Part shown: positions 32,041-60,345 of the stretch, piece after piece
How the letters are laid out: the number at the start of each line of letters is the position of its first letter
Numbering within the stretch: position 1 is the stretch's first letter
NCBI GenBank assembly: GCA_963847595.1
Contig: CAWKAJ010000002.1
Location: 77,068 to 141,067, forward strand
DNA length: 64,000 bases
Origin: an uncultured Chloroflexia bacterium
Lineage (GTDB): Bacteria > Chloroflexota > Dehalococcoidia > SZUA-161
Direction of reading: 5' to 3'
Notes under the pieces: model-generated
Database searches by the model: none
Seen by the model: only the letters and a program-made list of their open reading frames with translations
What the model was told of the DNA's origin: nothing
Made by a program: the position numbers and the translations under genes

Positions 32041-32864
32041 GACTTAGTCCTCCCAGGAACTGGCGCCTTTTTTAGAATTTCACACGAATTCAGCGCACAA
32101 TGGCAACAGTGTATCACGTTCAGCGGAGTTCGTCAAAGGGTGGGAAAGGAGGGCCCAACGCCGTCGCCGGGGATGAGGATGATGGTATGGGGGGTGTCCT
32201 TTGGGGTGTTATACTCAAGCATGAAATGGGAGCCTTCCATTTCAATATGTTAAGCAATTCTTGTTTGGAGATATTATTCCAGAGGCTTATTTTGTTGAGG
32301 ATATCGGAGAGGGTTCCTTTTGCTATTACTTTGTGTCCGAGGACAGTAATCCAACGAATTGAGAAGGCTAACGATATTATCGTCGCTGACTTGAGGTAGC
32401 TTTGGCATTCGATAGTTTTACCTCGGAGACGGTAAGGATAGTAATGGTCTCTGTAGTATCACCAAAATGGAGGCTCACAGCCTGTTTAATGTTCTCCAGG
32501 AGTTTGTCCAGAGTGCTGCCTTGAGTGAATATGTCTTCTCCTATCCCTCGGGCACACCAGGCTTAGCCATGGGAATATATTGCTATCTGCATGAGCATAT
32601 TGAAACTCCGCTAAACCTCAAGCAACATTATGTCAACTAGCATTTCCCATATCAACTCAAGACGATAGTATGACCGGGCTCCACCACCGTCTGCGCAAAT
32701 GATAAGCCCCCGTTTCGCTCGTGGTCAAGCCCATATCTGCGGTCAAGGCATATCCGCCGGGAACTCGTGTCAAGTATGAGTATGTTTAAGCGGGTCCCAG
32801 TAAGATCGCTGAAGGGAGCCAGGTGCACGCACATGCCTACCCCCGCGGAAACCCTTCATAGCCT

Positions 32865-32995
32865 TCATAGCCGTCACTGCCCACCAGTCACTGTCGATTG
32901 GCCCCGTGAGTCTTTGAGCGTTTCGGGCCGGGCTGTGGCCCGGAACCCGTCACAGCCGCCGGCTCAGCTCCGTCGGCATAGCTACCCGCGTGAAA
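32865..32995. repeat. Decayed copy of the 3' end and downstream region of the primase-P-loop gene (partner 36035..36165)
   Basis: Direct repeat of ~130 bp at ~75-80% identity. The stop codon of the intact copy (TAA at 36057) is replaced by CAA here. Confidence 0.6.
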
Positions 32996-33084
32996 ACCCT
33001 TTATAGCCTTCATTGCCGTCACCGGGGTAGGATGGATTCAATGTACACCAAAGTCAGGTAGAATAAAGAGACGGAGGTGTCGGC

Positions 33085-33333
33085 ATGCAAGTGATTGCGC
33101 AAGGAAGGTATACCATAGAATTCCGCCAGGAAGCGGTCAAACTGTTAACCGAGGAGAAGTTATCGTTACCAGAGGCAGCCCGCAGGTTGTCTTCGGGGCC
33201 TTCAACGATACGTTGCTGGGTAAAGGTATTTAAGGCTACCAAGCTGGGAGAAATTGGCAAGGGGCAAAGACCACTGACTGATGTTGAGATGTGTATACTT
33301 CAGAATAGGTACTTGGTCACCTGTCACGTCTAA
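33085..33333 (+). mobile_element. IS3-family transposase OrfA (HTH) remnant, no OrfB
   Basis: YTIEFRQEAVKLLTEEKLSLPEAARRLSSGPSTIRCWVKVFK...LTDVEMCILQ matches IS3 OrfA (FKxEAV, WVK, leucine-zipper start). It is truncated, with a minus-strand gene immediately after. A GGAGGTG RBS is present. Confidence 0.5.
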
Positions 33334-33902
33334 CTAACGGAATTTCCTAGTGAATCGCGAATAGATTCGCGTTTCGCCATCTGGTTTGCACTGTCGATAT
33401 TCTCCTTTTCAGGTATAACAACTTGAATACCCAGCGATGCAAGTAAGCGGGTTAGGAAAAGCGACGTAACTTCTTCCCAAGTTCTCCTCTCTCCGGAGAA
33501 AGCCAGCACAACAGGGTTGTCCTGTTCACCTATTGCTACGTCCTTCAGAAAAGATTCGAACTTGTTTCTGTCCCTCTGCGACAGGCTATAAGTCAGTGTA
33601 TCAATTACCTTGTCCAGAGTTACAAAGTGAGGCAAAATTTGTTTACGCCCCATTGCTCGGGTAAGCACAAGCCGAGCGAAAGTGGAAGGGCCTAACCCCT
33701 CCTCCTTGGCAATGTCACGCAGGCGTGTCAACTCCTCACCAGTTAGACGGACAGCCAAGAACGACGAACGCTTTTGTCTGGCTTGAGCTTTGTTAATCCT
33801 CGACTTGTATCCTTCAGCCAGCGGCCCACGTCCCTCCCAATACTTTCTTTCCTCCTCCAGTGATTGAAACTCTGGAACCCCAGTATCCTTCATTCTTTTC
33901 AT
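33330..33902 (-). CDS. BrnA-like/ribbon-helix-helix antitoxin domain protein with ~100-aa C-terminal extension
   Basis: N-terminal VPEFQSLEEERKYWEGRG...KRSSFLAVRLTGEELTRLRDIAKEEGLGPSTFARLVL resembles BrnA/RHH antitoxins. A brnT-like pseudogene lies directly upstream. Confidence 0.45.
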   Translation of the reverse strand: MKRMKDTGVPEFQSLEEERKYWEGRGPLAEGYKSRINKAQARQKRSSFLAVRLTGEELTRLRDIAKEEGLGPSTFARLVLTRAMGRKQILPHFVTLDKVIDTLTYSLSQRDRNKFESFLKDVAIGEQDNPVVLAFSGERRTWEEVTSLFLTRLLASLGIQVVIPEKENIDSANQMAKRESIRDSLGNSVS

Positions 33903-33916
33903 AGTCCCACTCTTCC

Positions 33917-34192
33917 TTATCCTTTTCTTGCTTTGTTTCTGTATCTACGCTCGTAGTGTTCGCTCATTTCGAAAGCGGTTACTGGTCTGAACAACCCTTT
34001 ACCAACTTGCTCAACCACCACGTTGAGATATTTGCCGGCCGCAGTTTGTCCGCTCAGGACATATGTTAGGTTACTTTCTCTCCTGCTTAGATGTGCCCCA
34101 AAGCAGATGTCTTCAACCTCCTCAGGGTTTACGTCGTGGCGCGCGATATGCTCGATATTTTCGTCATCCTATTCAAGCTCACTAATTCTCAA
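33917..34192 (-). pseudogene. brnT-like toxin gene inactivated by in-frame TAG at the conserved Trp
   Basis: The minus-strand translation LRISELE*DDENIEHIARHDVNPEEVEDI...FRPVTAFEMSEHYERRYRN aligns to the BrnT consensus MKFEWDENKNRSNIAKHGVSFEEA...RIISARKATKKER. The TAG (complement of 34169-34171) occupies the position of the EWD Trp. Confidence 0.5.
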
Positions 34193-34579
34193 TCACTTCT
34201 TCCCTTTGTTTAGGGTGTCACAATGTGACACAATTGTCAAGACATGTATGTGCTTCATACTGTCCTTTCACATAGGCAAATCTCTATGCCTCAAGCGCAT
34301 ACAACCCTGAGATTCTGGCTATGGGGCTTATGATAAGCGCGGCTTATAGTGCTTCAGCCTTTTCTGATGGCTTGTCACCGAAGTTCTTGATTATGATACA
34401 GCATAATCAGGATGGGATTTTTTGTAGGAAGACTCATTGAAAGCTGAGGGTACATATGGATGAAATGTGACTTGGAGCAGCATCAGCAAAGTAATTTGTG
34501 TTATGGGCGCTTACACAGACTTGACAAATACCTGCAGATGGAGTATCTTCAATGTAGATACCATGAATGGAGGTTTGAA

Positions 34580-34822
34580 ATGAGAACCCGTGTCCAGAAA
34601 TGGGGCAACAGCCTTGCCTTGCGTATCCCGAAATCTTTCGCAACCGAAGTAGGACTCCAGAGAGAAACGTCTGTTGAGGTATCGCTGGCAGATGGGAAAC
34701 TCGTTATCACACCCGTAACTGAACCGAAGCTGAACCTTGAACAACTTCTGGCAAAGGTCACGAAAGAAAACTTGCATCACGAAGTTGATACGGGCCCCTT
34801 CACAGGTAATGAAACATGGTAA
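34580..34822 (+). CDS. mazE: MazE/AbrB-type antitoxin
   Basis: VQKWGNSLALRIPKSFATEVGL...DGKLVITP is the SpoVT/AbrB swapped-hairpin signature. A GGAGG RBS is present. The stop overlaps the mazF start (ATGGTAA). Confidence 0.8.
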   Translation: MRTRVQKWGNSLALRIPKSFATEVGLQRETSVEVSLADGKLVITPVTEPKLNLEQLLAKVTKENLHHEVDTGPFTGNETW

Positions 34823-35163
34823 GCTCGCGAACTTATGTTCCACAATGTGGGGATGTGGTACGGATTACCTTGAATCCGCAAGCAGGTCATGAACAAGCAG
34901 GACGTCGTCCTGCTGTGGTACTCTCACCTCAAAGCTATAACGGGAAAACTGGGCTAGCTATCCTTTGTCCCATTACCAACCAGATTAAAGGCTATCCATT
35001 CGAGGTTCTTATCCCTGCGGGGTTGTCGGTCGCGGGGGCGATCTTGTCCGACCAGGTCAAGAGCTTAGATTGGCGCGCTAGAAATGCAGAATTGGTCTGC
35101 ACCTTGCCCACCGATACTATCTCGGAGGTGCTCCAGAAGTTGGTTACGTTGTTATCGCAGTAG
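34816..35163 (+). CDS. mazF: MazF/PemK-family endoribonuclease toxin
   Basis: GDVVRITLNPQAGHEQAGRRPAVVLS...LAILCPITNQIKGYPFEV...ILSDQVKSLDWRAR is the classic MazF/PemK pattern. Confidence 0.85.
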   Translation: MVSSRTYVPQCGDVVRITLNPQAGHEQAGRRPAVVLSPQSYNGKTGLAILCPITNQIKGYPFEVLIPAGLSVAGAILSDQVKSLDWRARNAELVCTLPTDTISEVLQKLVTLLSQ

Positions 35164-36056
35164 GGAAATGCTTTTCAGAGCAATTTTCATAGCAATAAGA
35201 CCTTTTGAATTACCTTAATCGGAGTGATAGAAGAGTAAGATCACCTCGGTTAATACCTTCCTTTCATTTCACAGACTGACATCCTATCTGAACTGTTAGC
35301 TACATACAAAATGTAGACCATCGACATCTTGCTGCTGGAAGCCTATTACAGACACCACCTTCACGGAGGAGGAATGTCCTATACAATGTCGCATGCAGAA
35401 AACAGTCGCACTATGTAAGTTATACGTACAATTCTGAAGCTATCCATGAGATATTACTGTGAGGACCATACGAAGCGCAAGAGGGCACCTTTGTCACAAC
35501 CACTATATCAAACCGAGTACTTATCTGCTTCTGGCGTAGAAAAATAGTATGAACCAATGCAGGCAGTATTGCGCCAGAGCTGTTATTAATGGGCGCCTGT
35601 CAGCGGACCAACAAGATCACGGGTGAGTCATCAATTCACGAACACTGGGATGTTTGATTTATTTGTACTATGACCATATTTCCGACAAGCAGTTATTCAG
35701 TATTCTACCGCAATCTACTTCTCTACTGACTCCGTCATTATTCTAAGGCGACTCGCTCGATGAGACCCTCGAAAACGCTTCCATTCAAGGGGCTATTTTC
35801 TCCCCATAGATCCGATAAACCATGTCTCCGATGCCTCCATTTTCAGGTCCGGGGTCAAGACAGCGCACACTGCGAAACACTATTTCAGGCAGTTTCTTTT
35901 TCCTCGAGTCGCCTATTCCGCTGTCATCTCCCATAGCGCGTTGATTTCAAGCAGGACAGGGAGCAGAGCCTTGGGGCACATCGTTCCCGTTGACTTCTGG
36001 GTATTCAGGAACGGGTCGAAAACCAACTAGCCTTGGTAGCCGTCACTGCCCACCAT

Positions 36057-38798
36057 TCACTGGTGATTAGCCCTGTGAGTCTTGGAGCGTATCCGGCCAG
36101 GCTGTGTTCCGGAACCCGTCACACTGACCGGAGCGGCTTCCTCAGCAGCAGGCTCGGTCGGCGCCTCAATGCCCCACCTATCGCAGACACTCGTCAGCTG
36201 CCCGGGCTGAATATAGTACATCACGCCTGTGGCAGTCCTCTTCTTCGATCTGGGACTGTGCAACAGGCCGAGGTTTTTCAAGCTGTATCCGACACTCTGC
36301 GGCACATCCCTGGGCAAATGGCTCCCTGCCAGAACCTGCCTGAGCTGCCCTTCCATCTCCTTTGCGGCAATCCATTTAGCCTCAGCTCCATCTTTTCCCA
36401 CCAGGGATACCAATACTTCCATCAAGGCCAGGTCGAATTCCTCGAGCCCGCTGTCCGAGCCCTCAGCTGAGGCCTCGCGGGCATACTCCACCAGCCGATC
36501 CAACACGCCATCGGCCCCACGCTCGTCCAGGAGCTTGGCCACGGAGAACAGGGGCAGCCACAATTCGTGGTCCCGGTTCAGGAGTATCCTGAGGCTGGCT
36601 TCGTCGGCGTAGAGCTGCCTCACCTCAGGGAAGTGGCCCAGCGCGAAGCAATACAGCTCGTGTCTCATGCCGGCCCAGTCCTCGCCGTTATCGGAAAGCT
36701 CCACCCTGCCGATTTCGGGGTTCTCGGTCCTCAACATGTTTATAGATATGCACCGGCTGCCCAGGATGTCCTCTATGGGGTCTATGCTGGCGATCATCTT
36801 GGGGCTGTACACGTCGTACTGTATCGCCATCAAACCTTTATCCGGGACGGCCTCCGCCCTGATGGCGGCGGCCCCCTTCTTGCACCCCGCCCTGAGTAGG
36901 CCCAGGAGCTCGCGGCTGTCCCGGTCCCTGGCCCCTCTCAGATTCTCCGCCTCGTCCAGGCCCACGCAACACCGGGAGGACTGCACCAACCTGAAGGTGG
37001 CGCTGGGGGTGATGCCGGAGGCCAGCACCATGTTGAATGCCAGCTTGGAGGCGAGCCTCATGGTCTGGGTCTTGCCGGTGCCCTTAAACCCGTAGAGGTG
37101 CAGATAGGGGTAGCTGGTGAACAGCGGGAACAGATAGCTCGCCATGCACCATATGGCCAGGATCTCTGCCTCCACGGGGTCCCTGAAATCTATGTGCCTT
37201 CTCACTATGCCCAGCAGCCTGGAGAAGGTTTGGCCAGGGTCCGGGTCATCTCCATCCAGGAACCTGTCTATATCGGCCTTCCTCCAGCGCTTCTCGCAGG
37301 GGGCTTTGGGTTCGCTCCGGAACAGGACGCGTTGCCCCCTTATCTCAAGCCCTCTCCCGTACGGCTCCAGCCTCTGCCTGTCGCTGGTGATCAGATAGGG
37401 CCTGGTAACTACCCTATTATCGATTTTCATATCCAAAGCCACGCTTACCACCCCTATTTGCTCCAGGTAGTCCAGCGCGGGGTGTATGGCCAGGCACGCG
37501 CCTTCATCGATATCCTCTGCACCAATGCCTGCGGCCCTTTCCTCCTCACCTCTGGCCTCCTTCAGGTGTGCTGCAAACTGCCCGCGGGTGATGCCCAGGC
37601 CCTTGACCACCTTCCTCCGGTATTGAGGCAGATCGAACTCGGCCAACGTGGCCATGAAGCGGAAGAGCCCTTCCACCTCGTCAGCCCGGCGCGCGCCGTT
37701 AAGTGCCGCGATACGCCCCAGCATGCTATCGACGAGATCGGGTGATTTGTTCAACAGGCTCCTAAACTGGTCCTTGGAACAGCGTAGAGGTCCCTTGGCG
37801 GATTCATAGAGGTCTCTCCCGTGCGTGGCCGCTGGGACCAGGTAAGGCATGATGCCTATACCTTTGGTGATGCGCTTGCCCAGGGCAAGCGCATCACCAA
37901 AGGCGTCAGGGATAAAACAAATATAAATTGGGTCGCGGCCCGCCAGAAGCGGCAGCCACTGCTCCGGCAGCGTGCCCCGCGGCACAAACAGGCAATTCAC
38001 TGACCAATCCACCAGAGCCATAAGGTCCCCGAAGCTCAGCACGATGACTAGCTCCCCCTTGTCGCCCTCGGCCACCGATCGTAAGGGCAAACCTTTCACA
38101 AGTTCATTTGGGGGCAGGTCCAGGTATGTGGGCCAGGTAGACTTTTCCAGGGCTTTCCCTGTCATAAATACCACCCGACCCCGGGAGTGGACCGGAATGG
38201 TGACCCTGTTTTGAAAGAAGTCGCTGCCGTCCTCTCTGAGCACACCGGCCTTTTTGGCCAACTCGATATCGAAGCCCTTCCCGGCCAGATACTGGGCCAG
38301 GTTGGCTCCCTGAGCCCATCCTAGCTTTAGTTTCATCACTGAAGCTTCATCCTGAGCAACCTTTTCCACCACTTCCTCCAGGCGAGCCCTATCTTGCACC
38401 AGGGCCTTGTGATAGAGATCGACTGTGGCCTCCAGGACATCCCCCATGGCTCTGAGTTCCAGCTCTGATGGTGCATCCGGTTGGGGCAGCGCGGGCTTCA
38501 GTATCCCTGCCCTGTCGGCAAGCATGTTCCTGGCTTGTATGAAATCCACCCCCTTCAATTCCCGAACCAGGTCGAATACATCTCCCCACCTGGCGCACCC
38601 GGAACAGCGGTAGGATTGGTCATCGACGTACACCGCGAAGCCTGCATGGCCGCCCTGGGGCAAAGGACAGGGGCACTTGAGCTCCGACGGAACAGTTTCA
38701 TCGAATCCTGGGAAGTCGGGAACGAACTCAGGCAGCACGTCCTGGATGGGATTGGCTGCCCTCACCTCCTCTGTGAACCCTGTTGTGATTCCTTTCAT
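36057..38798 (-). CDS. Primase-like replication protein: N-terminal zf-CHC2 zinc finger, Toprim-like domain, and a C-terminal P-loop NTPase (SF3-helicase/DUF3631-like) domain
   Basis: CPCPLPQGGHAGFAVYVDDQSYRCSGCARWGDVFDLV matches the DnaG zf-CHC2 pattern (CPFH...F.V....YHCFGCG..G). The C-terminal region has a Walker A motif (LYGFKGTGKTQTM) and a Walker B motif (VGLDEAENL). The gene has high GC. Confidence 0.65.
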   Translation of the reverse strand: MKGITTGFTEEVRAANPIQDVLPEFVPDFPGFDETVPSELKCPCPLPQGGHAGFAVYVDDQSYRCSGCARWGDVFDLVRELKGVDFIQARNMLADRAGILKPALPQPDAPSELELRAMGDVLEATVDLYHKALVQDRARLEEVVEKVAQDEASVMKLKLGWAQGANLAQYLAGKGFDIELAKKAGVLREDGSDFFQNRVTIPVHSRGRVVFMTGKALEKSTWPTYLDLPPNELVKGLPLRSVAEGDKGELVIVLSFGDLMALVDWSVNCLFVPRGTLPEQWLPLLAGRDPIYICFIPDAFGDALALGKRITKGIGIMPYLVPAATHGRDLYESAKGPLRCSKDQFRSLLNKSPDLVDSMLGRIAALNGARRADEVEGLFRFMATLAEFDLPQYRRKVVKGLGITRGQFAAHLKEARGEEERAAGIGAEDIDEGACLAIHPALDYLEQIGVVSVALDMKIDNRVVTRPYLITSDRQRLEPYGRGLEIRGQRVLFRSEPKAPCEKRWRKADIDRFLDGDDPDPGQTFSRLLGIVRRHIDFRDPVEAEILAIWCMASYLFPLFTSYPYLHLYGFKGTGKTQTMRLASKLAFNMVLASGITPSATFRLVQSSRCCVGLDEAENLRGARDRDSRELLGLLRAGCKKGAAAIRAEAVPDKGLMAIQYDVYSPKMIASIDPIEDILGSRCISINMLRTENPEIGRVELSDNGEDWAGMRHELYCFALGHFPEVRQLYADEASLRILLNRDHELWLPLFSVAKLLDERGADGVLDRLVEYAREASAEGSDSGLEEFDLALMEVLVSLVGKDGAEAKWIAAKEMEGQLRQVLAGSHLPRDVPQSVGYSLKNLGLLHSPRSKKRTATGVMYYIQPGQLTSVCDRWGIEAPTEPAAEEAAPVSVTGSGTQPGRIRSKTHRANHQ

Positions 38799-40057
38799 GT
38801 TCCCCTCCCTTGTCTTAAGGCTTGGCTATGCCCTGGCTTCAGGTTCAGCCATTCAGAGTAAGGTGCGCGCCTAAGAGTCCTATGGGACCAGGTTGCTCCA
38901 AAGCAGGGCAGAACCCGGAACTACCGACCCCGTCTCCCGCTGCCTTGTGCTATGGGCCGGCGTTTTCTCTAGCTTCCCTCTGCGCAGGTATGGTGTTGAC
39001 CACGGCCCAACGAGCAGCAAGCCCACGACAGGGGTTCTTGAGTTAGTCCAGTGCCCGTTTGGAAGGCCCCTAGCCCCAAGCGTCTCCCCCGGTTCAGCGC
39101 AGCTAGTAACAGGGCGGGCGATTCTCCGGAGACTACATTATACGACCTTCGCCCCAGTTTTCAAGAGCGGTTTCGCTGCTACTTTTGACCGGTCGAAGCC
39201 AGGCCACACGTGGAACAAAGGGGAAATCTCCCCGGCCACCCTGGCCAACACAGGGTGCCCCGCAAAGGAGGAGCCAATTCAACACATTTCCTGCCTGCCG
39301 GCATTATATTATGCCAAGTTAGCTCTGCTTTTGCTGGGGATTTCACTGGCACTTTGGTACTCCCTCAAGGGGGCTGACTATTTCGGACCTTGGGGAGAGC
39401 GCGGGGTTTGAGAAAGCGGGGTGCCCCTGGAGGAGGAGCCCAGGGCAGTACGCGAGGGCTTGCGGAGGGGAGAAACCTGGCACTGTGGCTGTTCTTGCCG
39501 CTCGGTGGCGCAGACGGTAGCTATTATGGCTGGGGGGAGACGTGGGCGGGTAGCCGGGTTTCTACGGCTTATCAGTCCAGAAGCACTCAGCCCATGGAGA
39601 GGTATGGCTCTCCTTCCTGATCATGCCGGCTTTGACCGGGGCTCCCTGGTCTCGCTGTTTCTCCCTCGCTCCGCATGATGAGCAGACACTCCCTAATTGG
39701 AGCGATGCGTTAATGTTTGGCACACGTATCATGGCCAAAGTTGGCCAGAGAGTCCTTAGCCTTCTGGCCAGGCTCGCGGATAAGGAGCCTATGGAACACG
39801 AGTCCCTCGAAGGGTCGGCAGAGGAAGCGGTTCCGCTCGGCGTTCCCGCAACAAATCATACTCCGCCGGGGCAGTCAAGCCGAGACAAGAGGGGGGAATG
39901 TGCTCCTAACGTGTTGAGTCTTGGAGCCCCATCATCGTCAAGTTTAAGAAAGTGGTAAGCGAATAGCAGAGGCAAAGGGCAGGAGGGGCGGAGCGTAATG
40001 CCAATGCGGTACCGCAGAACGTCGGCCCCCTAGGTTCACTGGGAGCAGCGTCGCTAG

Positions 40058-40306
40058 CTATTCTGAGTAGAAGTGCGGTTCGAGTTCGGTCTCAGGGATG
40101 TACCGCGCGGCTTGGCGCATAATAGCCCGTATTGTGCCGGGATCGAGCTCGGTGTGCAGAGGAATAGTCAGCGTCTGCTTTTCTCCGCTTTGGCCTATCC
40201 TGCGCAGTTTGACGTGGCTGCCCCTCTGGGAGTGGACATGAAAGCCAAACGCGGCCATGATGGTCAGCACCTGGCCTCCCGAGAGGCGCTTCAGCCTAGG
40301 GGACAA
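40058..40306 (-). CDS. hicA: HicA-family mRNA interferase toxin
   Basis: LSGGQVLTIMAAFGFHVHSQRGSHVKLRR...TLTIPLHTELDPGTIRAIMRQA is a YcfA/HicA fold pattern. Confidence 0.7.
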   Translation of the reverse strand: MSPRLKRLSGGQVLTIMAAFGFHVHSQRGSHVKLRRIGQSGEKQTLTIPLHTELDPGTIRAIMRQAARYIPETELEPHFYSE

Positions 40307-40523
40307 CCACAGGCTCCAACTCGAATGTCACCAAGAGCGATGGGTTAGGGGCGAGGTCGAAGTCAGCCAGGTCTTCGCCTTCAAGGTGCAGTGCCACCGC
40401 CTCCTGGAGATTTGAGATGGTTTCATCTAGGGTCTCGCCTTGGGTGACAACTGGTATCTCCAAGCACTCCGCAACATAATACTTCTCACCCTTATGCACA
40501 AATGCCTTGATCGAATGGCGCAC
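40296..40523 (-). CDS. hicB: HicB-family antitoxin (UPF0150)
   Basis: KGEKYYVAECLEIPVVTQGETLDETISNLQEAVALHLE matches HicB N-terminal domain consensus. It overlaps hicA by 11 nt. Confidence 0.65.
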   Translation of the reverse strand: MRHSIKAFVHKGEKYYVAECLEIPVVTQGETLDETISNLQEAVALHLEGEDLADFDLAPNPSLLVTFELEPVVVP

Positions 40524-40751
40524 AACTACCCCCTCTATTCGATACGGGTGTCGACTACTGCATACACCCTGTTGCTAAACATTTTAAACCCAGCTCATTG
40601 TTTCTGCAACTTGCTGTACCTTCTGGCACTGTGCAGATCGGGACAGGGTTCCTCTAAGCCTAATGTGTGGTCCCTGCCCTTTCTATAGGCGTCTCAGCAG
40701 AGGCAATTACCGAAAACCGCCAGAAAGCCCGCATGTCCGTGTCGGTGATGA

Positions 40752-43277
40752 ATGAGCCTTGAGCTCCCTTCTGAAATAGTTGACATGTGTGTTATTTTGT
40801 GCGAGATTATCGACAGGGAATGTGAACATTCCAGGAATGAGGTCTATCGAATAAACTGCCGCCTCGTTCAGGGACTGAAGGGGGCAGATTTCCTACTTGC
40901 TCTGGATGCGCTTGCCTGGAGGGCGGGGATGCAGAAGCCGAAGCTAGGTGAGGGCGATATGAAGTGGGAGCTCAAACAGAGAGCCATTGAGGATGTCCTG
41001 GGCGCTACCGCCGATATCTACCACCGGGCCCTTGTGCAAGACAGGGCCTTCCTCCAACATCTACAAGCGAAGATGGCCTGGTCTGAAGAAACTATAAAGG
41101 AAGCCAAGCTAGGGCTGGCGCGGGGAACGGACCTGGCGGGGCATCTGGCTGCCCAGGGGTTCGATTTGAAGCTGGCAAAAGGGGCCGGGGTGGTGAAGCG
41201 GGACGGCAGGGCCTTCTTTGAGGGCAGGCTCGTAATACCCTATTTGGCTCAAGGCAGGGTGGTGTATATGTCAGGGTGGGCCCTGGAGGGTTCAAGCCTG
41301 CCCGAATGCCTGGGTCTCCCCGTGAGCAGATTGGTGCAGAGGGTGGCCTTTAATGCTGATGCCCTGCACGAGCAGGGGAAGCTGATCATCGTGGAGGGCT
41401 GGGCCAGCGCATTGACCCTGAAGCAGTGGGGCTACGATGTCGTCTCCCTGGGGGGGACGGCCTTATCCGGGGAGGAGCTCCGGCTCTTGAAAGGCCACGA
41501 CAGGATTTACCTTTGCTTCGACACTGGCCCCTTCGACAGGGCTGTGGCGGCGGCGAAGGGGATCGCAAGGCAAATGGGCATCGTGGCTCACCTGGTCGAG
41601 TTGCCGCAGGGCGCTAAAGACCCCCATGAATTTGCCCTCCAGGGCCATACCGGGGCTGAGTATGAGGAGCTATTGGAACGGGCGAGGTCCCTGCTTGACG
41701 TGATGCTGGAACGTGCTGCGGCCACCATAGGTGTGGAGCGAGGCAGCTACGAGAGAGATCTCTTCACCTGCATGCGCGGGCTAGGCGACCCCGATATCGA
41801 GCCCTATCGGCAGAAGGCGCTCCGGAGCCTGGGTATAAATGATCACGATTTCACGGTGTACCTTGTGGCGGCCAGGACTGGGGAAAGGATACCGCTGGAG
41901 GTCGCTACGCGGAACTTTGCCCCCGGCTCGTTCTTGGAGCTACACCCTGCCCTGGATTACTCGGCCCAGGTGGGGGTGCTCGCCGCAGCTTGGGATGAGG
42001 TCATTGGCAACAGGGCTGTTACCAGGCTCTATCTGATCACCAGCAACAGGGAGAAGCTGGAGTGGGACGGGCGCCCGCTCCAGCTCTATGGCAAACGCGT
42101 GATACTCCGGAGCGAGCCCAGGGCTCCCTATGAGAAGCGCTGGAGGGAGGCAGATATCGAGAGGTTCCTGGCGGGAGATGACCCGGATCCTGGCCAAACC
42201 TTCAATCGGTTGCTGGAAGCAGTGCAGCGTCACATAGGCTTCAAGGAGGCGACAAAGGCGGAGCTCCTGTCCATATGGTGCATGGGCAGCTATCTGTTCC
42301 CCCTTTTCGGCGCATATCCCTACTTGCATCTCTACGGCCCCCAGGGCTGGGCCAGGACGCAGACCATGGCGCTGGCGACCAGGGTGGCCTGCAACATGGT
42401 GCCCTCATCTGCCGTCGCACCCCGCAACATGTTCAGGTTGGTGCAGTACTCCCGCTGTGGCCTGGCTCTGGATGAGGTAGAGAACCTGAGGGGATCCCCA
42501 CACCAGGGTGCCCAGGACCTGCTCAGGTTCCTCAGGGCTGGATACAAGGAAGACGGGCGAGCCGAGGTATGGGAAGACGAGCCTGGCCAGGGATCACACC
42601 TCAGACTGCGCGAGGCCTATAGTCCCAAGATCGTTGCCAGCACAGGTGACATAGAGGATATCTTGGCTGGCAGGTGCATCCCCCTAGATATGCGGAGCAG
42701 CGAAGGTGCCGGCAGCAGCGGGCTCGAGCTTTCGGACGATGCCGAGGACTGGCCCGGCATCAGGCACGAACTCTACTGCTTTGCCCTGGGCCACTTCCAG
42801 GAGGTGAGGCGGCTATACCTCGATGACGCTGCCATCAATATTTCCCTGGAGAGGGACAATGAACTGTGGCTGCCCCTGCTCGCCGTGGCCAAATTCCTGG
42901 AGGAGCGCGGGGCCGACGGCGTGTGGGATAGAATGATGAGGTACGCCGTCGACGCGTGCGGCTCTGCCTCAGAGGGACTGACCCGGGAATTCGACGTTGC
43001 CCTGATCAGGGCACTGGAGTCCAAGCTGGGGAGGTCTCAAGTCGAAGCTGAATGGGTCTATGCCTCCAGCCTTGAATTGAAGGTTCGCGCCGCTACGGGG
43101 GGACGGTATTCCCGGCAGCAGGTGGCGCACCGGGTGGGAGCCAGGCTGAGGGAGCTGGGGTTCTTAAGCGAGCCCGGATCGAAGGAGTCGACACAAAGGA
43201 GTGTGAGGTACCTTATTCATCCCCAGGATGTGAGGGATGCCCGCGGTAGGTATGGACTCAAGTCGGTGCGGTTTTAG
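40752..43277 (+). CDS. Paralog of the primase-P-loop protein, with degenerate Walker A and no canonical zinc finger
   Basis: The protein is colinear with the 36057..38798 product from RAGMQKPKL onward (for example GRVVYMSGWALEG vs GRVVFMTGKALEK, and PYLHLYG...TQTM). The P-loop is GPQGWARTQT instead of GFKGTGKTQT. A Walker B-like LALDEVENL is retained. Confidence 0.6.
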   Translation: MSLELPSEIVDMCVILCEIIDRECEHSRNEVYRINCRLVQGLKGADFLLALDALAWRAGMQKPKLGEGDMKWELKQRAIEDVLGATADIYHRALVQDRAFLQHLQAKMAWSEETIKEAKLGLARGTDLAGHLAAQGFDLKLAKGAGVVKRDGRAFFEGRLVIPYLAQGRVVYMSGWALEGSSLPECLGLPVSRLVQRVAFNADALHEQGKLIIVEGWASALTLKQWGYDVVSLGGTALSGEELRLLKGHDRIYLCFDTGPFDRAVAAAKGIARQMGIVAHLVELPQGAKDPHEFALQGHTGAEYEELLERARSLLDVMLERAAATIGVERGSYERDLFTCMRGLGDPDIEPYRQKALRSLGINDHDFTVYLVAARTGERIPLEVATRNFAPGSFLELHPALDYSAQVGVLAAAWDEVIGNRAVTRLYLITSNREKLEWDGRPLQLYGKRVILRSEPRAPYEKRWREADIERFLAGDDPDPGQTFNRLLEAVQRHIGFKEATKAELLSIWCMGSYLFPLFGAYPYLHLYGPQGWARTQTMALATRVACNMVPSSAVAPRNMFRLVQYSRCGLALDEVENLRGSPHQGAQDLLRFLRAGYKEDGRAEVWEDEPGQGSHLRLREAYSPKIVASTGDIEDILAGRCIPLDMRSSEGAGSSGLELSDDAEDWPGIRHELYCFALGHFQEVRRLYLDDAAINISLERDNELWLPLLAVAKFLEERGADGVWDRMMRYAVDACGSASEGLTREFDVALIRALESKLGRSQVEAEWVYASSLELKVRAATGGRYSRQQVAHRVGARLRELGFLSEPGSKESTQRSVRYLIHPQDVRDARGRYGLKSVRF

Positions 43278-43361
43278 CCTAGGGGGGCGCTCTTGGCACA
43301 CGTAGACATAAGCTGTATAACGAAGCCGTAGGAATGATAGACAAATATACGGAGCATCGAT

Positions 43362-43568
43362 ATGTCAAAGATGACCGTCGTCATTGATGACAAGTTGCTG
43401 GACGAGGCGATGCGCGTGAGCGGAGCCAAGACTAAGAAACAGGCCATCGCCACCGGGCTCGAAGAGTTAATCCGCAGAAAGTACTTAGAAGATTTGCGCC
43501 AAGAATTGGGCACATTCGAACTCGCCCTTTCTTCAGGGGATCTGGAGAAGCTGAGGCACGAGCAGTAA
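43362..43568 (+). CDS. vapB: VapB-type antitoxin
   Basis: MSKMTVVIDDKLLDEAMRVSGAKTKKQAIATGLEELIRR is the typical VapB signature. Confidence 0.75.
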   Translation: MSKMTVVIDDKLLDEAMRVSGAKTKKQAIATGLEELIRRKYLEDLRQELGTFELALSSGDLEKLRHEQ

Positions 43569-43572
43569 TCTG

Positions 43573-43976
43573 GTGCTCATCGACACCTTGGTTTGGATTC
43601 TGGCTCTCGGGAAACCTCCACTGGCGAGATAAGGGATGAGGTAGCACACCTGCTGGCGGAGAACAGGGTAGCTATTGTCCCAGTGATACGTCTCGATCTA
43701 TTAGGGGGAACGAAACCACTGGATGATTTTAACCGCCTGCAGAGCCGCCTCAATGCCCTTCACCAGATGGCTGCAGATGAAGCCATCTGGGAGACAGCGA
43801 TTCAGCTTGCCTTCAGATTACGACAGGGAGGGAAGATGATCCTTTATACTGATTTACTCATTGCCTCGGCTGCCATCGTTAACAGCTGTACGCTTCTTCA
43901 CTGTGACAGGCACTTTGATCTGATGGCTGAGCATACCCGTTTGAACATGAGAAGCCTTGTTTCTATTGTAGGGTAA
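43573..43976 (+). pseudogene. vapC: VapC PIN-domain toxin gene interrupted by a frameshift
   Basis: A GTG start gives (M)LIDTLVWILALGKPPLAR*, in frame 1 with TAA at 43630-43632. The rest of the PIN domain (EIRDEVAHLLAENRVAIVPVIRLDLLGG...DLLIASAAIVNSCTLLHCDRHFD) runs in frame 0 through 43976. Confidence 0.55.
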
Positions 43977-44501
43977 CGGACCATCACAGAGTCTTCGTAG
44001 CTACCCCCAACCGGAATGGGCTCGAAGTCATTAACGAATGCCTGGAATCATTTTAAGAGGTAACCTACCCCAATCATAAGGTTCATGATGCCAATATGCC
44101 GTGTTCGCTGACCATGAGCAACCTGCGGAGTTTCTGCCAAGCCATACCTTCAAGGAATCGCATGCTCGGTGGGGTAACCCCCACCGTTAGGTATAAATAG
44201 GTGTGATCCTATCGCCTGGATCAATGCCATAATATACACCAGCCAAGTTACGAACATTTTTTGCCACCTCCTCGGCCTGAATGAGTGTTGGCTTCTGCCA
44301 CTACAACTCATTAGACTACGGTACGAGGAGCAATACATCAGCGAGATTCTTATTTTCTATAGAGAGAGGGCCGCTAGAAATAGTGACCTGAGTCGTTGGT
44401 TTCCTTTGGCTTACGATTGCGACCTCCCCGGGGTATCCGGCAGTAATGAAGTACTGTTCAAGCATGGTGGAAGATAACGGCTTTGTTACGCTAACGTTCT
44501 T

Positions 44502-44600
44502 GGTATTTGCCCAGAACTTCGCCGACGATACGCGCGCTCTTCTTATTAGGGACTGTTGTAGTGCAGTCCCATGTCGCTTAAGGCGCAAAGTATTCTGCGT
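44502..44600. repeat. Direct repeat DR-R: displaced, degenerate copy of gyrA codons 43-76 (partner 31815..31912)
   Basis: See DR-L. The copy carries a 1-nt insertion and substitutions, so it no longer encodes the GyrA segment. No gyrA start or upstream sequence follows it. Confidence 0.8.
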
Positions 44601-44651
44601 GCATCCGAATGAGATGACGTTACAAGGGGGGCGATGCTGGCCCTTTTGTCA

Positions 44652-46166
44652 TCACCAGAAATAGGGCGTGCCCAGCGCCCTGATATTTGCGATAAGTATC
44701 ATTATCTTGGCAAGGATTTCAGCTATTATCCTCCCAACACCAGTGCCTACGAGGGCGGTGATTGTTCGGTCAGCGTATTTGGTAGACCAGGCAATGAAGG
44801 TGTCCCAATTGGCCACAAAGCCACCCGGCGGTTGGTCAGGGACATCGCCCCCCGGCGTTCGCAACACCACGAAGCACAGTCTCGCTGTTTTAAAAGACTG
44901 GCCTTCCGGATTGGGCAGTGCGATCAGTCCTGAGGTCAGGATATAGAACTGGGTATCGTTACCAGTTATCCAGGTACCTGTGAAGGTGGATGACTCTCCT
45001 GTCACCTCTTGCCTGAGGTAGAACAGTGTTCTTACCCTGCTTCCGTACAGGTCAACTGGTACTATCTCAGGGGTAGCATTGCCTACCTGGAGTGTAAGGT
45101 TCCCCAACGCATGCACTGAGAAGCTCTGGGAACCATTGCCTCTTTCAACTTGTGTAGCATAGCCGACTAGTGTAGCAGAAGCGACATCTCCGTAGCTGGT
45201 GCACCAGCCCCACCCCTGAAGGTAAAGATGCACGGCGGTAGTGAAGTCGTAGTAGGTGCTATTGCCAGGGCTGACTGTGGTGTGGCCGTTAGTATCCGTC
45301 GAACTTACCTCATAGTAATACAAAGTAGCTGGGGCAAGTCCGGTCAGATTAACGAGATGGTTGGTGGTAAGATTGCCGCTGTATAGTGTAGAGCCCAGGG
45401 CGGTGCTGTTCCCATAGTTAACTGTGCTATCACTTGGCTGGTCGGTTGTCCAGGTTATGGTGGCTGAGGTGTCGGTTATGTTCCCAGCATTTACTCCTGA
45501 TATCATAACACCTGTTGTTAAGCTATAAAAAGCATCGTTGTTGTTATCTATCGTGACGTTACCGTATGGATTTGCTGAGCTTACCTCGAAATGATACAAG
45601 GTACTGGGAGTGAGTCCAGTCAAGATTATGGAGTGGTTCAAAACAAAACTGCTGTCATAAGCTGCTGAGTCCAACAGCAAGTCGGTGCCATAACTAACTG
45701 TGCTGTTGGCGAGACGGTCAGTCGACCAGGTTATGATTGCTGAATTATAGGTTATGTTCCCTACATTGACCCCTGAGATTGTGGGAGGGTATGGGTCTGT
45801 GGTGAAATTGCCTGTATCGCTAACTGCAGAGTTCCCAACAGAGTCCGTTGAGCTTACCTCATAATAATAAAGAGTGGCCAGATCGAGTCCGGTTAAAGTT
45901 ATGGTGTGGTTTCCGACAAACTCGCTGTCAGATACAATAGTGCCTAGATCAGTTGTATTACCGTAGTTTACAGTGCTATTGGCTAGCTCGTCGGTGGTCC
46001 AGGTGATGGTAGCCGTGGTTTCAGTTATGTTCCCCGAACTAACCCCCGATATCGCCAGCGGACTGGCTGAGGCCGGGGAAGCTATTAGCCACAACAGGAG
46101 TAATGCCACTATTGTGGCTATTGCCGGTTTATGCTCGCGCAGTCGAGCTTTCCCCCAGCCTTTCAT
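44652..46166 (-). CDS. Secreted surface protein with signal peptide, three tandem FN3/PAP-N-like repeats and an extreme density of N-x-S/T sequons
   Basis: Signal peptide (LLLLWLIASPASASP). The block TITWTTD...ANSTVNYGN.T.LG...L.GL.P.TLYYYEVSS.D is repeated three times. I count about 19 N-x-S/T sites in 504 aa. Confidence 0.7.
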   Translation of the reverse strand: MKGWGKARLREHKPAIATIVALLLLWLIASPASASPLAISGVSSGNITETTATITWTTDELANSTVNYGNTTDLGTIVSDSEFVGNHTITLTGLDLATLYYYEVSSTDSVGNSAVSDTGNFTTDPYPPTISGVNVGNITYNSAIITWSTDRLANSTVSYGTDLLLDSAAYDSSFVLNHSIILTGLTPSTLYHFEVSSANPYGNVTIDNNNDAFYSLTTGVMISGVNAGNITDTSATITWTTDQPSDSTVNYGNSTALGSTLYSGNLTTNHLVNLTGLAPATLYYYEVSSTDTNGHTTVSPGNSTYYDFTTAVHLYLQGWGWCTSYGDVASATLVGYATQVERGNGSQSFSVHALGNLTLQVGNATPEIVPVDLYGSRVRTLFYLRQEVTGESSTFTGTWITGNDTQFYILTSGLIALPNPEGQSFKTARLCFVVLRTPGGDVPDQPPGGFVANWDTFIAWSTKYADRTITALVGTGVGRIIAEILAKIMILIANIRALGTPYFW

Positions 46167-46365: not shown

Positions 46366-46629
46366 TTAGCCCGAGTGATGCTGCATGATGTTCGCAAGGG
46401 CACTAAGGATACCGCCGAAGTTCTGCAGCAGAGGGCCGAGATGGTTAATCAAAGGTGCGAAGGCCAGGTTGAATACCATTGTTGAGCCACTGGCTGCTCC
46501 GAACCCTGAATAAGGACTGTTGAGGATGTCTTGTGCGTTCATCCCGAGGCGTGTGCCGGTCTCCATAAGTATGGTGCCAAGTGTACTCAGATAGCCTATG
46601 ATTGATTCTAACACCTGTTCCACCCCCAT
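46366..46629 (-). CDS. Small hydrophobic protein, member B of a 4-member local paralog family
   Basis: 87 aa (MGVEQVLESII...PLINHLGPLLQNFGGILSALANIM). It shares the N-terminal MG(I/V)LE..(D/E)Q/S and C-terminal N.LG...L..FL..L pattern with the ORFs at 47128, 48653 and 49835. Confidence 0.45.
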   Translation of the reverse strand: MGVEQVLESIIGYLSTLGTILMETGTRLGMNAQDILNSPYSGFGAASGSTMVFNLAFAPLINHLGPLLQNFGGILSALANIMQHHSG

Positions 46630-47127: not shown

Positions 47128-47343
47128 CTAGAGAGCACTCAGGAAGTTAGCTAATCCAGTGCAAATGGCGCCCAGATTAGTGACCCAAGGCATAACAAAA
47201 CCTGTGAGAGCCGCGGTGGACAATGGCATAGGTCCCCCATACTGAGCAGGCATGTTGACCGTAAGGCTCAGCAAGGTACCCATCTGGGCCAAGGACGGTG
47301 AAAATGCCGCGGCCAATTGGTCAAGACTTTCAAGTATACCCAT
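47128..47343 (-). CDS. Small hydrophobic protein A1 (paralog family)
   Basis: 71 aa with a strong SD (AAAGGAGGTGAGAAC-N-ATG). It is ~70% identical to the 49835..50047 product and lies within a ~380-bp duplicated module. Confidence 0.55.
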   Translation of the reverse strand: MGILESLDQLAAAFSPSLAQMGTLLSLTVNMPAQYGGPMPLSTAALTGFVMPWVTNLGAICTGLANFLSAL

Positions 47344-47590: not shown

Positions 47591-48520
47591 CTACTGGGGG
47601 AGCTTCCATCTGGCTATCACAGGAGGGTTGCTCATGCTATCAAGAAGGTAGGAAACTTCCATCCCTGAAGCTGATATTGGCACTATCCATAGGATGTTGC
47701 CGGTGACTGTTACCTTGGGCGACAGACTAGCATTTGGGTACGGGCTGCTAAAGCTGTAGTCCCCGTACGTTTCGTCATTGTATGAATGCCCTGCGGAGTC
47801 GGTGAGCAAGAAATACGATGGTCCTGTCAAGAAAGAAGTGTTGCTGATGTTCTTGCATGTCACCGTTATGAATATGAAGGCCTTTCCGGGAGGCGCCTTG
47901 ACGGTCTCGCCGAATGAACTGCTGTACGAGGTCTTTTCTTCTGCTAAGGAGACTGTAATGTTTCCGCCCCCTGTTGCCAATATGTTTTCCCCTATGTCAA
48001 AATACTTAACAACAGCATTGGCGGGCATCGGAACTGGCGTAGAGAGAGGCACTGATGTTGTTGGTTTGGAGACGCATGAGTAGATGCCCCAGGAAGGCAA
48101 CCCAATAACTAACAGGAGAGATGTTATAAGGATTACCCTTCCCCAAATACAAAGGCCGGTTGGCCGAGGACGGTCTTCTGCCGATGGCTCTTGCGGGGGG
48201 TTTTGCCTTGCCTTTGGTTTGAGCTCTGGCTTTGGTTGTGTTATTGCGTTGGGTTGTGGTGTTGGTACCAGTTTGGGCTGTAGCTGCGGCGCTGGCTTAG
48301 ATTGTGATAATGGTTTTGGCTCTAGGGTCGGTTGGGGTGGGGGTGGAGGTTTTGGTGTAGAAGGTGTTCCAAATGGCAGGAATGCATCACAGGATCTGGT
48401 ATCGGCTCTAACCTGCATTCTATATTTAACGCCTGCATGTTTCGCAGTAGTACAATTGAAAAACTTATCGCCTTTTTTCGGCTTGAAGTTTTGACACTTG
48501 CCGCAGATGTTGCTACTCAT
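47591..48520 (-). CDS. Membrane-anchored secreted protein: N-terminal zinc-ribbon, Pro-rich linker, TM helix, C-terminal DUF4352-like beta domain
   Basis: CGKCQNF...C...C, then PKPPPPPQPTLEPKP... repeats, a TM helix (ILITSLLLVIGL), and a C-terminal domain with NIT/NIS/NTS/NAS sequons. Confidence 0.55.
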   Translation of the reverse strand: MSSNICGKCQNFKPKKGDKFFNCTTAKHAGVKYRMQVRADTRSCDAFLPFGTPSTPKPPPPPQPTLEPKPLSQSKPAPQLQPKLVPTPQPNAITQPKPELKPKARQNPPQEPSAEDRPRPTGLCIWGRVILITSLLLVIGLPSWGIYSCVSKPTTSVPLSTPVPMPANAVVKYFDIGENILATGGGNITVSLAEEKTSYSSSFGETVKAPPGKAFIFITVTCKNISNTSFLTGPSYFLLTDSAGHSYNDETYGDYSFSSPYPNASLSPKVTVTGNILWIVPISASGMEVSYLLDSMSNPPVIARWKLPQ

Positions 48521-48652: not shown

Positions 48653-48847
48653 CTAAGATATTGGATTATGCGTCGCTATATTCGCCAGGAACTGCGCCAA
48701 GGATACTGCATCATGTGCCAGACCATTGACAAGGTGAGAACCCATGGGCGTCAGCGGCTGGGAAGGCCCTAGGGTCACTAAACCACTGAGGGAGTTGTTG
48801 ACTACGTTCAGCGCGCTTACTATGAGACTCGCCATGGAATGTGGCAT
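48653..48847 (-). CDS. Small hydrophobic protein, member C of the paralog family
   Basis: Start chosen at MPHSMASLIV (64 aa), preceded by AAGGAAAG. The C-terminal LVNGLAHDAVSLAQFLANIA fits the family pattern. The longer ORF annotation starts at 48895. Confidence 0.45.
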   Translation of the reverse strand: MPHSMASLIVSALNVVNNSLSGLVTLGPSQPLTPMGSHLVNGLAHDAVSLAQFLANIATHNPIS

Positions 48848-49066
48848 GATAGTCTTTCCTTTAATAATATCAGGGTAATACACATAGCATAACACGATTA
48901 TGAGAATTGTTCAACGCAAGTATTGCCTCCCCTTATCAAATAGCTAGAACAAACTCCAAAATTGGGAGCTAAAGTTAATATGATGATAGATTAGTAAACA
49001 ATCGGAGTCTCTTTTGCTCTGCGGAATGCCGCCTGATAGCTAATCCGTTTTGTGCTGGTTCGATTA

Positions 49067-49642
49067 CTAGGGGATCTGCCACACGCCCCGCACAGGCGTC
49101 GAACCCTGCAAAAGGCAGGAGAGCTCAAGGCCCGTAGCCGTTGCAAGCGGGTTAAACGCGATGTAACCATAGGCGCTCTGGCCGGTAGCAAGTTTCCGGC
49201 TGGGATAGGGGTTAACTCCCGGGTAGCCGATGCAAGGCCACACACGACCTTGTGCGTCCTTCATGCTGAAATCCTTGTAGGATATGGCCAACGAGCTGCT
49301 CTGCCCCACATTGGTGACTGAGAGTTCTACGACTACCAATATGGTGCCAGGTGCTGCTATTTCGAAGGTTTTGAAAAGCCGACCCAGTCCTACGGGTGTC
49401 TTAATCTCGCTCACTCTCTGAGTGGAGATGACGGTAAGTACTTCCCGCGAGGTCTCCGCGGGTTGCCCTATCTGGTAGTAGACGTTCATAGCAGGTGGAG
49501 GCTTGCTGCCGCCACAACCCGACCCCGAGGCGAGCATCAGGGCCAGGATACCTGTAAGCACTATCGCTGGGAGGATTACTCTTGTGACGCGCCCTATCAA
49601 CGCAGAAGAAACCATTTTTGTGGCTTTATCCTTCTTAGCCAA
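49067..49642 (-). CDS. Lipoprotein with DUF4352-like domain
   Basis: The signal peptide has a lipobox (LASGSGC). A beta-rich domain follows (ILVVVELSVTNVGQSS...YGYIAFN), similar to the C-terminal domain of the 47591..48520 product. Confidence 0.6.
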   Translation of the reverse strand: MAKKDKATKMVSSALIGRVTRVILPAIVLTGILALMLASGSGCGGSKPPPAMNVYYQIGQPAETSREVLTVISTQRVSEIKTPVGLGRLFKTFEIAAPGTILVVVELSVTNVGQSSSLAISYKDFSMKDAQGRVWPCIGYPGVNPYPSRKLATGQSAYGYIAFNPLATATGLELSCLLQGSTPVRGVWQIP

Positions 49643-60297: not shown

Positions 60298-60345
60298 GTA
60301 TCTATATAGAATTGAGAGTGTCTATGAGAAGGACAAAGCACACTG

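Follow-up and report, generated by a model that had tools for sequence, protein, structure and literature searches.

In a 64,000-nucleotide stretch of DNA from an uncultured Dehalococcoidia bacterium (hereafter the window, whose positions are used for all coordinates, with the strand as given), we found that a 504-aa protein encoded at 44652..46166 on the minus strand carries 18 N-glycosylation sequons, many more than its composition predicts. The excess is real, directional and specific to the clade of proteins sharing its C-terminal domain (C-domain), and neither composition nor fold explains it. A gene encoding a homologue of the oligosaccharyltransferase (OST) STT3/AglB lies close by, and genes for the two kinds of protein are linked in many related genomes. 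On balance, we think it probable that the 504-aa protein is an exported surface protein that is heavily N-glycosylated by an enzyme of the STT3/AglB type. In the scheme that we propose, it would be exported by the Sec route to the cell surface and would consist of a signal peptide, three FN3 repeats of the purple-acid-phosphatase-N type and a lineage-specific C-terminal beta-barrel with a helical hairpin. Selection would have filled its loops with G-N-x-T/S sites, which would be multiply N-glycosylated outside the cytoplasmic membrane with a lipid-linked glycan as donor, in the way known for S-layer proteins and archaellins of archaea. This reaction has two candidate enzymes: the neighbouring short AglB-like paralogue, in which the catalytic residues are kept and the WWD/DK pocket for Ser/Thr appears degraded, and a canonical WWDYG AglB of ~800 aa encoded elsewhere in the lineage. 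Possibly, the neighbour serves as a second, specialised OST that goes with the C-domain family of proteins. The window itself encodes RpoD and GyrA, indicating that the DNA is bacterial, and its placement in Dehalococcoidia follows from homologues named as Dehalococcoidia or Chloroflexota.

Sequons (N-x-S/T, where x is not Pro) were counted against an expectation from composition-preserving shuffles, and z denotes the excess over this composition-based expectation. Results showed 18 sequons in the 504-aa protein versus 7.7±2.4 expected, a number reached by 1 of 10,000 shuffles. The original prediction, made from the DNA letters alone, had put about 19 sites in 504 aa; the length and the excess hold, while the count is 18. 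The excess is directional, since Ser or Thr stands at +2 of 55% of the Asn residues and at -2 of only 27%, and the +2 frequency for other abundant residues is 13-25%. Thr outnumbers Ser at the +2 position of the sequons (16:2), and a Gly precedes 14 of the 18 sequon Asn as compared with 1 of the 15 non-sequon Asn (binomial p 6e-12 against 9% Gly), so that the sites are indeed mostly of the G-N-x-T kind noticed at first (G-N-x-S/T, 14/18). Asp or Glu at -2, already noted as missing, was found at 0/18 sites, an absence that is not significant in itself as only ~1.4 would be expected by chance; the extended sequon of PglB type (D/E-x-N-x-S/T) is ruled out as the rule followed by these sites.

Among the ~60 ORFs of the window, the 504-aa one is an outlier with 3.57 sequons per 100 aa (z 4.7), the others not exceeding 1.8 per 100 aa. 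Other exported proteins of the window are not enriched: an exported PA14 protein has 0 sequons versus 0.8-1.9 expected, depending on the start codon, and a 191-aa DUF4352 protein (49067..49642, minus strand) has 0 versus 0.6-0.7. Thus, compared within the window, the enrichment over other secreted proteins stands. By contrast, the sequon clusters that had been proposed for two more products were not borne out: the Gly-rich product of 61811..62761 has 4 sequons versus 3.5-3.6 expected (z 0.3), and the product of 47591..48520 has 5 versus 2.1-2.2 (z ~2), 1 of them predicted to face the cytoplasm, and no enrichment was seen among its orthologues.

The architecture of the protein agrees in large part with the first description. 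Its N-terminus reads as a Sec signal peptide (predicted for residues 1-34, 46065..46166, minus strand), with a basic n-region MKGWGKARLREHK, a 19-residue hydrophobic core (Kyte-Doolittle hydropathy, KD, 2.15) and the residues ASA|SP, all of it conserved in the orthologues, and the protein looks exported. Three tandem FN3/Pur_ac_phosph_N repeats follow on the same strand: residues 37-125 (45792..46058, 5 sequons), 128-218 (45513..45785, 4 sequons) and 220-310 (45237..45509, 5 sequons). Both PF16656 (78.3 bits, cut-off 30) and PF00041 (44.6 bits, cut-off 25) match in three stretches. The remainder, residues 311-504 (44655..45236, minus strand), is the family-defining C-domain.

This C-domain of ~195 aa is predicted by AlphaFold (pLDDT 79) to form 8 long antiparallel beta-strands followed by two helices in a helical hairpin. 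No Pfam or NCBIfam family matched it, nor did any PDB entry with an E-value below 1e-3. Invariant features are GWGWC, YGSRVRSLFYLRQ, GTW, LRTP..VP and a terminal G-x-P-Y (family end motif G-[TVI]-P-Y), and a GNLT sequon at N356 is retained by 91% of the members. The family is tiny, its members falling into 37 clusters (50% identity) in a set of 1.84 billion representatives, and the domain is always C-terminal, placed after varied N-terminal modules. What had been described as a hydrophobic C-terminal tail is instead helix 2 of the predicted hairpin: it is hydrophobic in the window protein (KD 1.9) and contains charged residues, and distant homologues have more of these, which does not make for a clean membrane anchor. 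We read this terminal helix as made for amphipathic packing or surface association, and the idea of a transmembrane anchor is unsupported given the many charges in distant homologues. Anchoring by the PGF-CTERM/archaeosortase system was also ruled out, as the protein ends in ...IRALGTPYFW and has no PGF tripeptide.

We then compared the sequons across the family, using 338 FN3 repeats taken from 120 homologues and split by the presence (180 repeats) or absence (158 repeats) of the C-domain in the same protein; the named proteins without C-domain belong to Nitrospirae, Bryobacteraceae and Gammaproteobacteria. Repeats of C-domain proteins carry 3.95 sequons each (4.7 per 100 aa) versus 1.59 (2.0 per 100 aa) in the others, and the gains are concentrated in specific loop columns. 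The G-N-I-T column holds a sequon in 62% of the C-domain-protein repeats versus 23% of the other FN3 repeats, the A-N-S-T column in 44% versus 2%, the Y-G-N-T-T column in 56% versus 5%, the N-H-T/S column in 24% versus 4%, and the G-N-T-T column in 51% versus 15%. In the last of these, Asn is equally frequent in both sets, and the difference therefore lies in the +2 Thr. In the C-domain clade only, Asn was gained at alignment columns 41 and 59, and the +2 Thr at column 146. For whole proteins, z is 3-5.6 for most C-domain proteins versus -1.3 to 2.9 for the others, and an unrelated type of N-terminal repeat attached to the same C-domain is enriched as well (z 4.3 in locus L005, 3.0 in protein P0243 and 3.6 in P0247; L001-L035 designate loci of relatives and P-numbers homologous proteins). 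The 28 orthologues with three repeats have 8-21 sequons (median 16) spread over 56 alignment columns, 12 of which are common to half or more of them; sequon density is thus maintained as sites turn over. Moreover, Gly precedes 66% of the sequon Asn and 8% of the other Asn in the C-domain family, whereas the corresponding values in FN3 proteins outside it are 19% and 15%. Across the family, Thr:Ser at +2 is 925:212, and Asp or Glu stands at -2 in 5.5% of the sequons.

The candidate enzyme next to this gene is a 607-aa glycosyltransferase of the GT-C class and STT3/AglB superfamily (50414..52237, plus strand); its gene and the FN3 gene diverge, and 4,248 bp separate its start from the latter. 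The original prediction of a non-canonical OST homologue ~4 kb away is upheld on both counts. Taken alone against curated models, the protein gave no match to PF02516 (STT3) and scored below cut-off with an AglB_core-like model (18 bits, cut-off 27, E 0.0038), TIGR04154 (28 bits, cut-off 450) and Dpy19 (PF10034, 16.5 bits, cut-off 27.2, E 0.0026). A profile built from 39 relatives and searched against PDB sequences recovered human or canine STT3A (2e-18), Archaeoglobus fulgidus AglB (2e-11), yeast Stt3 (5e-10) and the short AglB C-terminal domains 3VGP (E 8e-7) and 3VU0 (2e-6). Its AlphaFold2 model (pLDDT 84, pTM 0.81) matched STT3A, AglB and Stt3 by Foldseek at E 1e-17 to 1e-13, with weaker fold matches to PglB (1e-12), DPY19 (4e-11) and ArnT (3e-7). 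D81, D194-R-D196 and E338 are invariant in the 39 sequences and align to the EL1 Asp (DPY), the DxD/DNE motif and the VSE Glu of STT3A. Profile and predicted fold together indicate that the neighbour is a genuine member of the STT3/AglB superfamily, with its catalytic carboxylates intact. Membership of the DPY19 C-mannosyltransferases is not supported, since the Dpy19 model stays below its cut-off and the DPY19 fold match (4e-11) is weaker than that to STT3 (1e-17).

Characterised OSTs bind the +2 Ser/Thr of the acceptor through WWD and through the DK lysine, the DK or MI motif forming the second wall of the Ser/Thr pocket. In the window enzyme DWGWG stands in place of WWDYG; most of the family has QWSWG (consensus Q-W-S-W-G), the reduced motif can be written as [QNED]-W-[SGT]-W-G, and the position of the first Trp of WWD is nearly always taken by a polar, hydrogen-bonding residue (Q/N/E/D/H). 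D540 and I547 (+7), at the place that we tentatively assign to the DK motif by comparison with the STT3A sequence, are nearly invariant, and the Lys at +3 is not conserved. A perfect WWDYG occurs in ~10 of 120 GT-C relatives and in addition in L014, L019, L022 and L023, and one WWDYG-bearing relative, P0194, occupies the same syntenic slot as the window enzyme. As such orthologues exist, the window enzyme is a derived orthologue of an ordinary OST; it has kept the catalytic machinery and appears to have lost the classical pocket for the +2 Ser/Thr.

The short GT-C gene is a single copy in the window and is tandemly duplicated in three other loci (L001:2701-6307, L010:4763-8133 and L012:108-3478); both copies of L001, the ones captured by the motif scan, have the degenerate QWSWG. 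Two Chloroflexi metagenome-assembled genomes (MAGs; L019:2663-14467 and L015:5788-17595) have a complete archaellum operon and, a few kb upstream of it, a gene for a short GT-C with WWDYG and 37-39% identity; the order in L019 is rhomboid, LuxR, three Arch_flagellin genes, ArlF/G-like, ArlJ-like and KaiC-like ArlH. In archaea, AglB glycosylates archaellins. Archaellins were nonetheless rejected as the main substrate of the short GT-C, since those encoded next to its homologues in L019 and L015 have 0-2 sequons each.

Gene linkage was followed across the relatives. An array composed of the FN3/C-domain gene, small ORFs, DUF4352 genes, the GT-C gene in 1-2 copies, an RDD-family gene and an ADH gene recurs in L001-L003, L005, L006, L010, L011 and L027, and one of its flanks switches from gyrA to a MiaB-like gene among the loci. 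The RDD gene, which encodes a membrane protein (52317..53156, plus strand, in the window), directly follows the GT-C gene in all loci whose GT-C is at least 39% identical and is absent from the other, more divergent ones. C-domain and GT-C genes are linked in L001-L003, L005, L006, L027, L022 and L026. Even in L022 and L026, where GT-C identity falls to 33-36% and both RDD and ADH are missing, a gene for a C-domain-only protein, with no FN3 repeats and 1-2 sequons, lies 1.5-3 kb upstream. Furthermore, the distant C-domain protein P0256 is encoded 2.8 kb from a canonical 821-aa AglB in L032. Two other distant members had no OST in the nearby DNA examined: P0253, which is free of sequons, and P0263, which is rich in them and lies on an 8-kb contig. 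C-domain proteins and STT3-type enzymes are likely to be functionally tied in some way, though not universally; the co-occurrence of homologues with STT3 that we looked for holds over a wide divergence, including L022, L026 and L032, and fails for these two members.

Two observations on these loci can be added. L010 (CAYGYN010000008.1) is labelled 'Candidatus Woesearchaeota archaeon', and it carries two DUF4352 genes, two GT-C genes, RDD and an ADH 87% identical to that of the window; with its full Dehalococcoidia-type array, the contig is probably mis-binned. Directly downstream of the C-domain gene, four loci (L003:5296-5895, L005:1606-2205, L006:2766-3467 and L027:646-1260) encode a ~200-aa polytopic membrane protein with a basic tail rich in Lys, Arg and Ser, which has no Pfam family and is absent at that place from the window, L001 and L002.

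A second candidate enzyme came from a sister genome that encodes an 86%-identical orthologue of the window protein (P0002), an orthologue of the short GT-C (P0130) and a canonical AglB (P0366; 812 aa, WWDYG at residue 585). Around P0366 (L035:1-22439; ENA ERZ25039480 contig_69712, 1.17-1.19 Mb) lie genes for four GT2 enzymes, a flippase (Polysacc_synt), radical-SAM/SPASM proteins and a PMT_2 protein, and by its gene content this locus is a full archaeal-style agl/N-glycosylation cluster in a Dehalococcoidia bacterium, present in the genome beside the short paralogue. AglB of the L032 type (821 aa, TIGR04154 at 704 bits) is widespread in Dehalococcoidia/Chloroflexota MAGs, and WWDYG is found in 97 of its best 120 matches. 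The NCBI pipeline already names these canonical genes 'oligosaccharyl transferase, archaeosortase A system-associated'. Given the canonical AglB of the sister genome, the neighbouring paralogue is only one candidate enzyme, and we consider the canonical AglB, known from that genome, at least as likely as the neighbour to perform the bulk of a putative N-x-T glycosylation.

We asked whether the neighbour (50414..52237) may itself glycosylate relaxed G-N-x-T sequons, which is the version that the original prediction had put forward. The genes are divergently adjacent at 4.2 kb, the linkage recurs in many loci even where the RDD/ADH synteny is gone (L022/L026), the catalytic carboxylates are invariant, and the polar residue at the position of the first Trp of WWD makes a modified Ser/Thr pocket conceivable. 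On the other hand, WWDYG is reduced and the DK Lys is not conserved in an enzyme whose supposed substrate strongly prefers Thr at +2, in the window protein as in the family. The enrichment is also similar next to an enzyme with WWDYG (L027, z 3.4), with DWGWG (window, z 4.7) or with QWGVG (L005, z 4.3), so it is independent of the WWD state of the adjacent enzyme, which weakens the assignment to the neighbour and leaves the glycoprotein idea unaffected. In addition, the sister genome has its canonical AglB, and the synteny could largely be inherited gene order. We therefore regard the neighbour as a possible but doubtful author of the modification. Of the initial claim, a candidate N-glycoprotein substrate of the adjacent OST, the glycoprotein part is favoured by the exported look, the sequon excess, the STT3 homology and the linkage, while the adjacent enzyme is put in question by the loss of WWD and by the canonical AglB.

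It could also be that no glycosylation takes place and that G-N-x-T is structural, with Asn in tight turns after Gly and Thr opening a beta-strand, a feature inherited and then amplified by repeat duplication. Two of the main sites follow a Gly conserved in all FN3/PAP-N domains (YG at column 58, G at column 145), 23% of unrelated FN3 repeats likewise have N-I-T at column 9, Thr, Ser and Asn are abundant in the proteins, some members have few or zero sequons, and the compared sequences are phylogenetically related. Nevertheless, z remains 3-5.6 in most members with shuffles that control for composition, and the excess concerns Asn alone and only its +2 side. The gains at columns 41, 59 (Asn) and 146 (+2 Thr) occurred in this clade only, and the enrichment with its Gly(-1) bias extends to the C-domain and to unrelated N-terminal domain types. 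Moreover, density is kept despite site turnover, and the lineage encodes STT3-type enzymes. Altogether, a purely structural origin seems unlikely to us.

Several observations nevertheless weigh against N-glycosylation of the 504-aa protein by an STT3/AglB-type enzyme. Several G-N sites follow a Gly that the fold itself conserves (YG, G-N loop), which may account for part of the Gly(-1) signal, and because the homologue sets are related by descent, the sequon statistics overstate independence. One orthologue sub-clade is unenriched (z 0.2-1.3), the C-domain members P0251, P0253 and P0261 have zero sequons, and neither the other exported proteins of the window nor the archaellins encoded beside the GT-C homologue of L019 are sequon-rich. 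Finally, the neighbouring enzyme has no WWD.

A further alternative is that the short GT-C has changed acceptor, for instance to the invariant GWGWC of the C-domain or to a non-protein molecule, with the canonical AglB taking care of the FN3 sequons, if these are used at all. DPY19 C-mannosyltransferases recognise a W-x-x-W/C sequon. The enzyme has retained its catalytic residues and lost both motifs of the Ser/Thr pocket, there are the weak Dpy19 match in Pfam and the DPY19 fold match already mentioned, and the C-domain gene is the most consistent neighbour of the GT-C gene, even in L022 and L026, where its product has no FN3 repeats and so few sequons. The matches to STT3/AglB are much stronger than those to DPY19, however, the W-x-x-C idea is a resemblance only, and the syntenic orthologues with intact WWDYG speak for an ordinary OST as the ancestral function. 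We thus hold a changed acceptor to be improbable. A speculative form of the glycoprotein proposal, to which we give little credence, combines these elements: the short AglB paralogue (xWxWG, DK Lys lost) would be a dedicated glycosyltransferase of the C-domain family, acting in wall-less Dehalococcoidia alongside a canonical archaeal-type AglB under a new acceptor rule, either an extended G-N-x-T/S sequon that is read differently or another target such as GWGWC. If this is true, Chloroflexota would gain their first described N-glycosylation system and OSTs a new specificity class.

The minus-strand array between the two main genes of the window consists of small ORFs and exported-protein genes. 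Going away from the GT-C gene, it starts with a 70-aa ORF (49835..50047), first gene of the array and divergent from GT-C, and continues with the second DUF4352-like exported protein (49067..49642), an 80-aa ORF of the same small-ORF series (48653..48895), the DUF4352 membrane protein of the conserved cluster (47591..48520; Cys-rich N-terminus, Pro-rich linker, transmembrane segment and DUF4352), a 71-aa ORF that is a close paralogue of the first one (47128..47343) and an 87-aa ORF directly upstream of the FN3 gene (46366..46629). The four small ORFs (70-87 aa) precede genes of exported proteins (the two DUF4352 genes and the FN3/C-domain gene), and two of them are ~70% identical. They showed no signal peptide and no Pfam or NCBIfam match, and similar small genes are called at the corresponding position in L001, L002, L031 and L032. 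Farther along, 56243..61354 (strand not assigned) contains glycan-related genes (Methyltransf_24, GT2, GT1/GT4 and a methyltransferase), and a UDP-Glc/GDP-Man dehydrogenase starts at 63237. Since the GT2, GT4 and methyltransferase genes have only generic family names, no glycan pathway is tied to the locus; these genes and the dehydrogenase are a possible source of glycan, with no specific link.

On the other side of the FN3/C-domain gene, the distance to gyrA is 0.2-0.8 kb in L001 and L002, and in the window ~12.6 kb are inserted (32041..44651). The insertion contains a NikA-like ORF, a MazE/MazF pair, two large primase/Toprim-like ORFs (36057..38798 and 40752..43277) and a PIN-domain ORF, and the GC content is 58-60% over 36-44 kb versus ~50% elsewhere in the window. 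It has the look of a mobile element that integrated here. A search for tRNA genes gave none, and direct repeats gave no convincing attachment sites; one direct repeat of 120 nt with 81% identity lies within the island (32859..32978 and 36028..36147).

OST-dependent N-glycosylation in bacteria is experimentally known mainly from Campylobacterota and Desulfobacterota, and the lineage considered here lacks peptidoglycan and has S-layer-like envelopes. Our literature search, within the library that was searchable, found no description of an OST or of N-glycosylation or N-glycoproteins in Dehalococcoidia or Chloroflexi. A recent paper on the Chloroflexota archaellum reports only probable O-glycosylation, in another class, and archaella that the Dehalococcoidia lineage acquired from archaea (PMC12488501). 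If the 504-aa protein is glycosylated, OST-dependent N-glycosylation would reach Chloroflexota, and an archaeal-type surface trait would be added to the Dehalococcoidia lineage. Moreover, short OST orthologues with and without WWDYG, found beside a sequon-rich substrate with Gly(-1) and Thr(+2), would represent a natural experiment on sequon reading and possibly a source of enzymes with new specificity for glyco-engineering.

Among known systems, the closest likeness is to the S-layer glycoproteins and archaellins modified by AglB in archaea. As in those, a putatively exported surface protein has dense N-x-S/T sites with no acidic requirement at -2 and with Thr preferred at +2, and the lineage encodes an archaeal-type AglB (the L032 enzyme by its TIGR04154 score), accompanied in the sister genome by GT2 genes and a flippase. 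Unlike the archaeal substrates, the protein belongs to a bacterium, its combination of FN3 with a new C-domain matches no characterised S-layer protein, it has no PGF-CTERM, its Gly(-1) preference is marked, and its glycosylation is a prediction. The Dehalococcoidia host lineage has no classical wall (see also PMC4959059).

For the enzyme, the best parallel is offered by AglB-S1 (AF_0329) and AglB-S2 (AF_0040), which exist alongside AglB-L in A. fulgidus: in both cases there is an STT3-type protein of ~600 aa with a small C-terminal globular domain and a long AglB of ~800 aa in the lineage, and the C-terminal domain of the window GT-C matches 3VGP and 3VU0 by sequence and by fold. The short AglBs of A. 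fulgidus retain both the WWDYG and the DK motifs, whereas the window GT-C and most of its close relatives have DWGWG or QWSWG and miss the DK Lys. The Campylobacter PglB system is similar in that a single-subunit STT3 homologue acts in a bacterium, here presumably on exported proteins, and the folds match (E ~1e-12); it differs by its D/E-x-N-x-S/T rule, followed by 0/18 sites, and the window GT-C is closer to STT3/AglB than to PglB. With DPY19, finally, the window GT-C shares a fold related to STT3, the absence of WWDYG, weak matches in Pfam and fold, and a partner C-domain with an invariant W-G-W-C. It departs from DPY19 by its better match to STT3/AglB, by the presence of all STT3-type acidic motifs and by the existence of orthologues that bear WWDYG.

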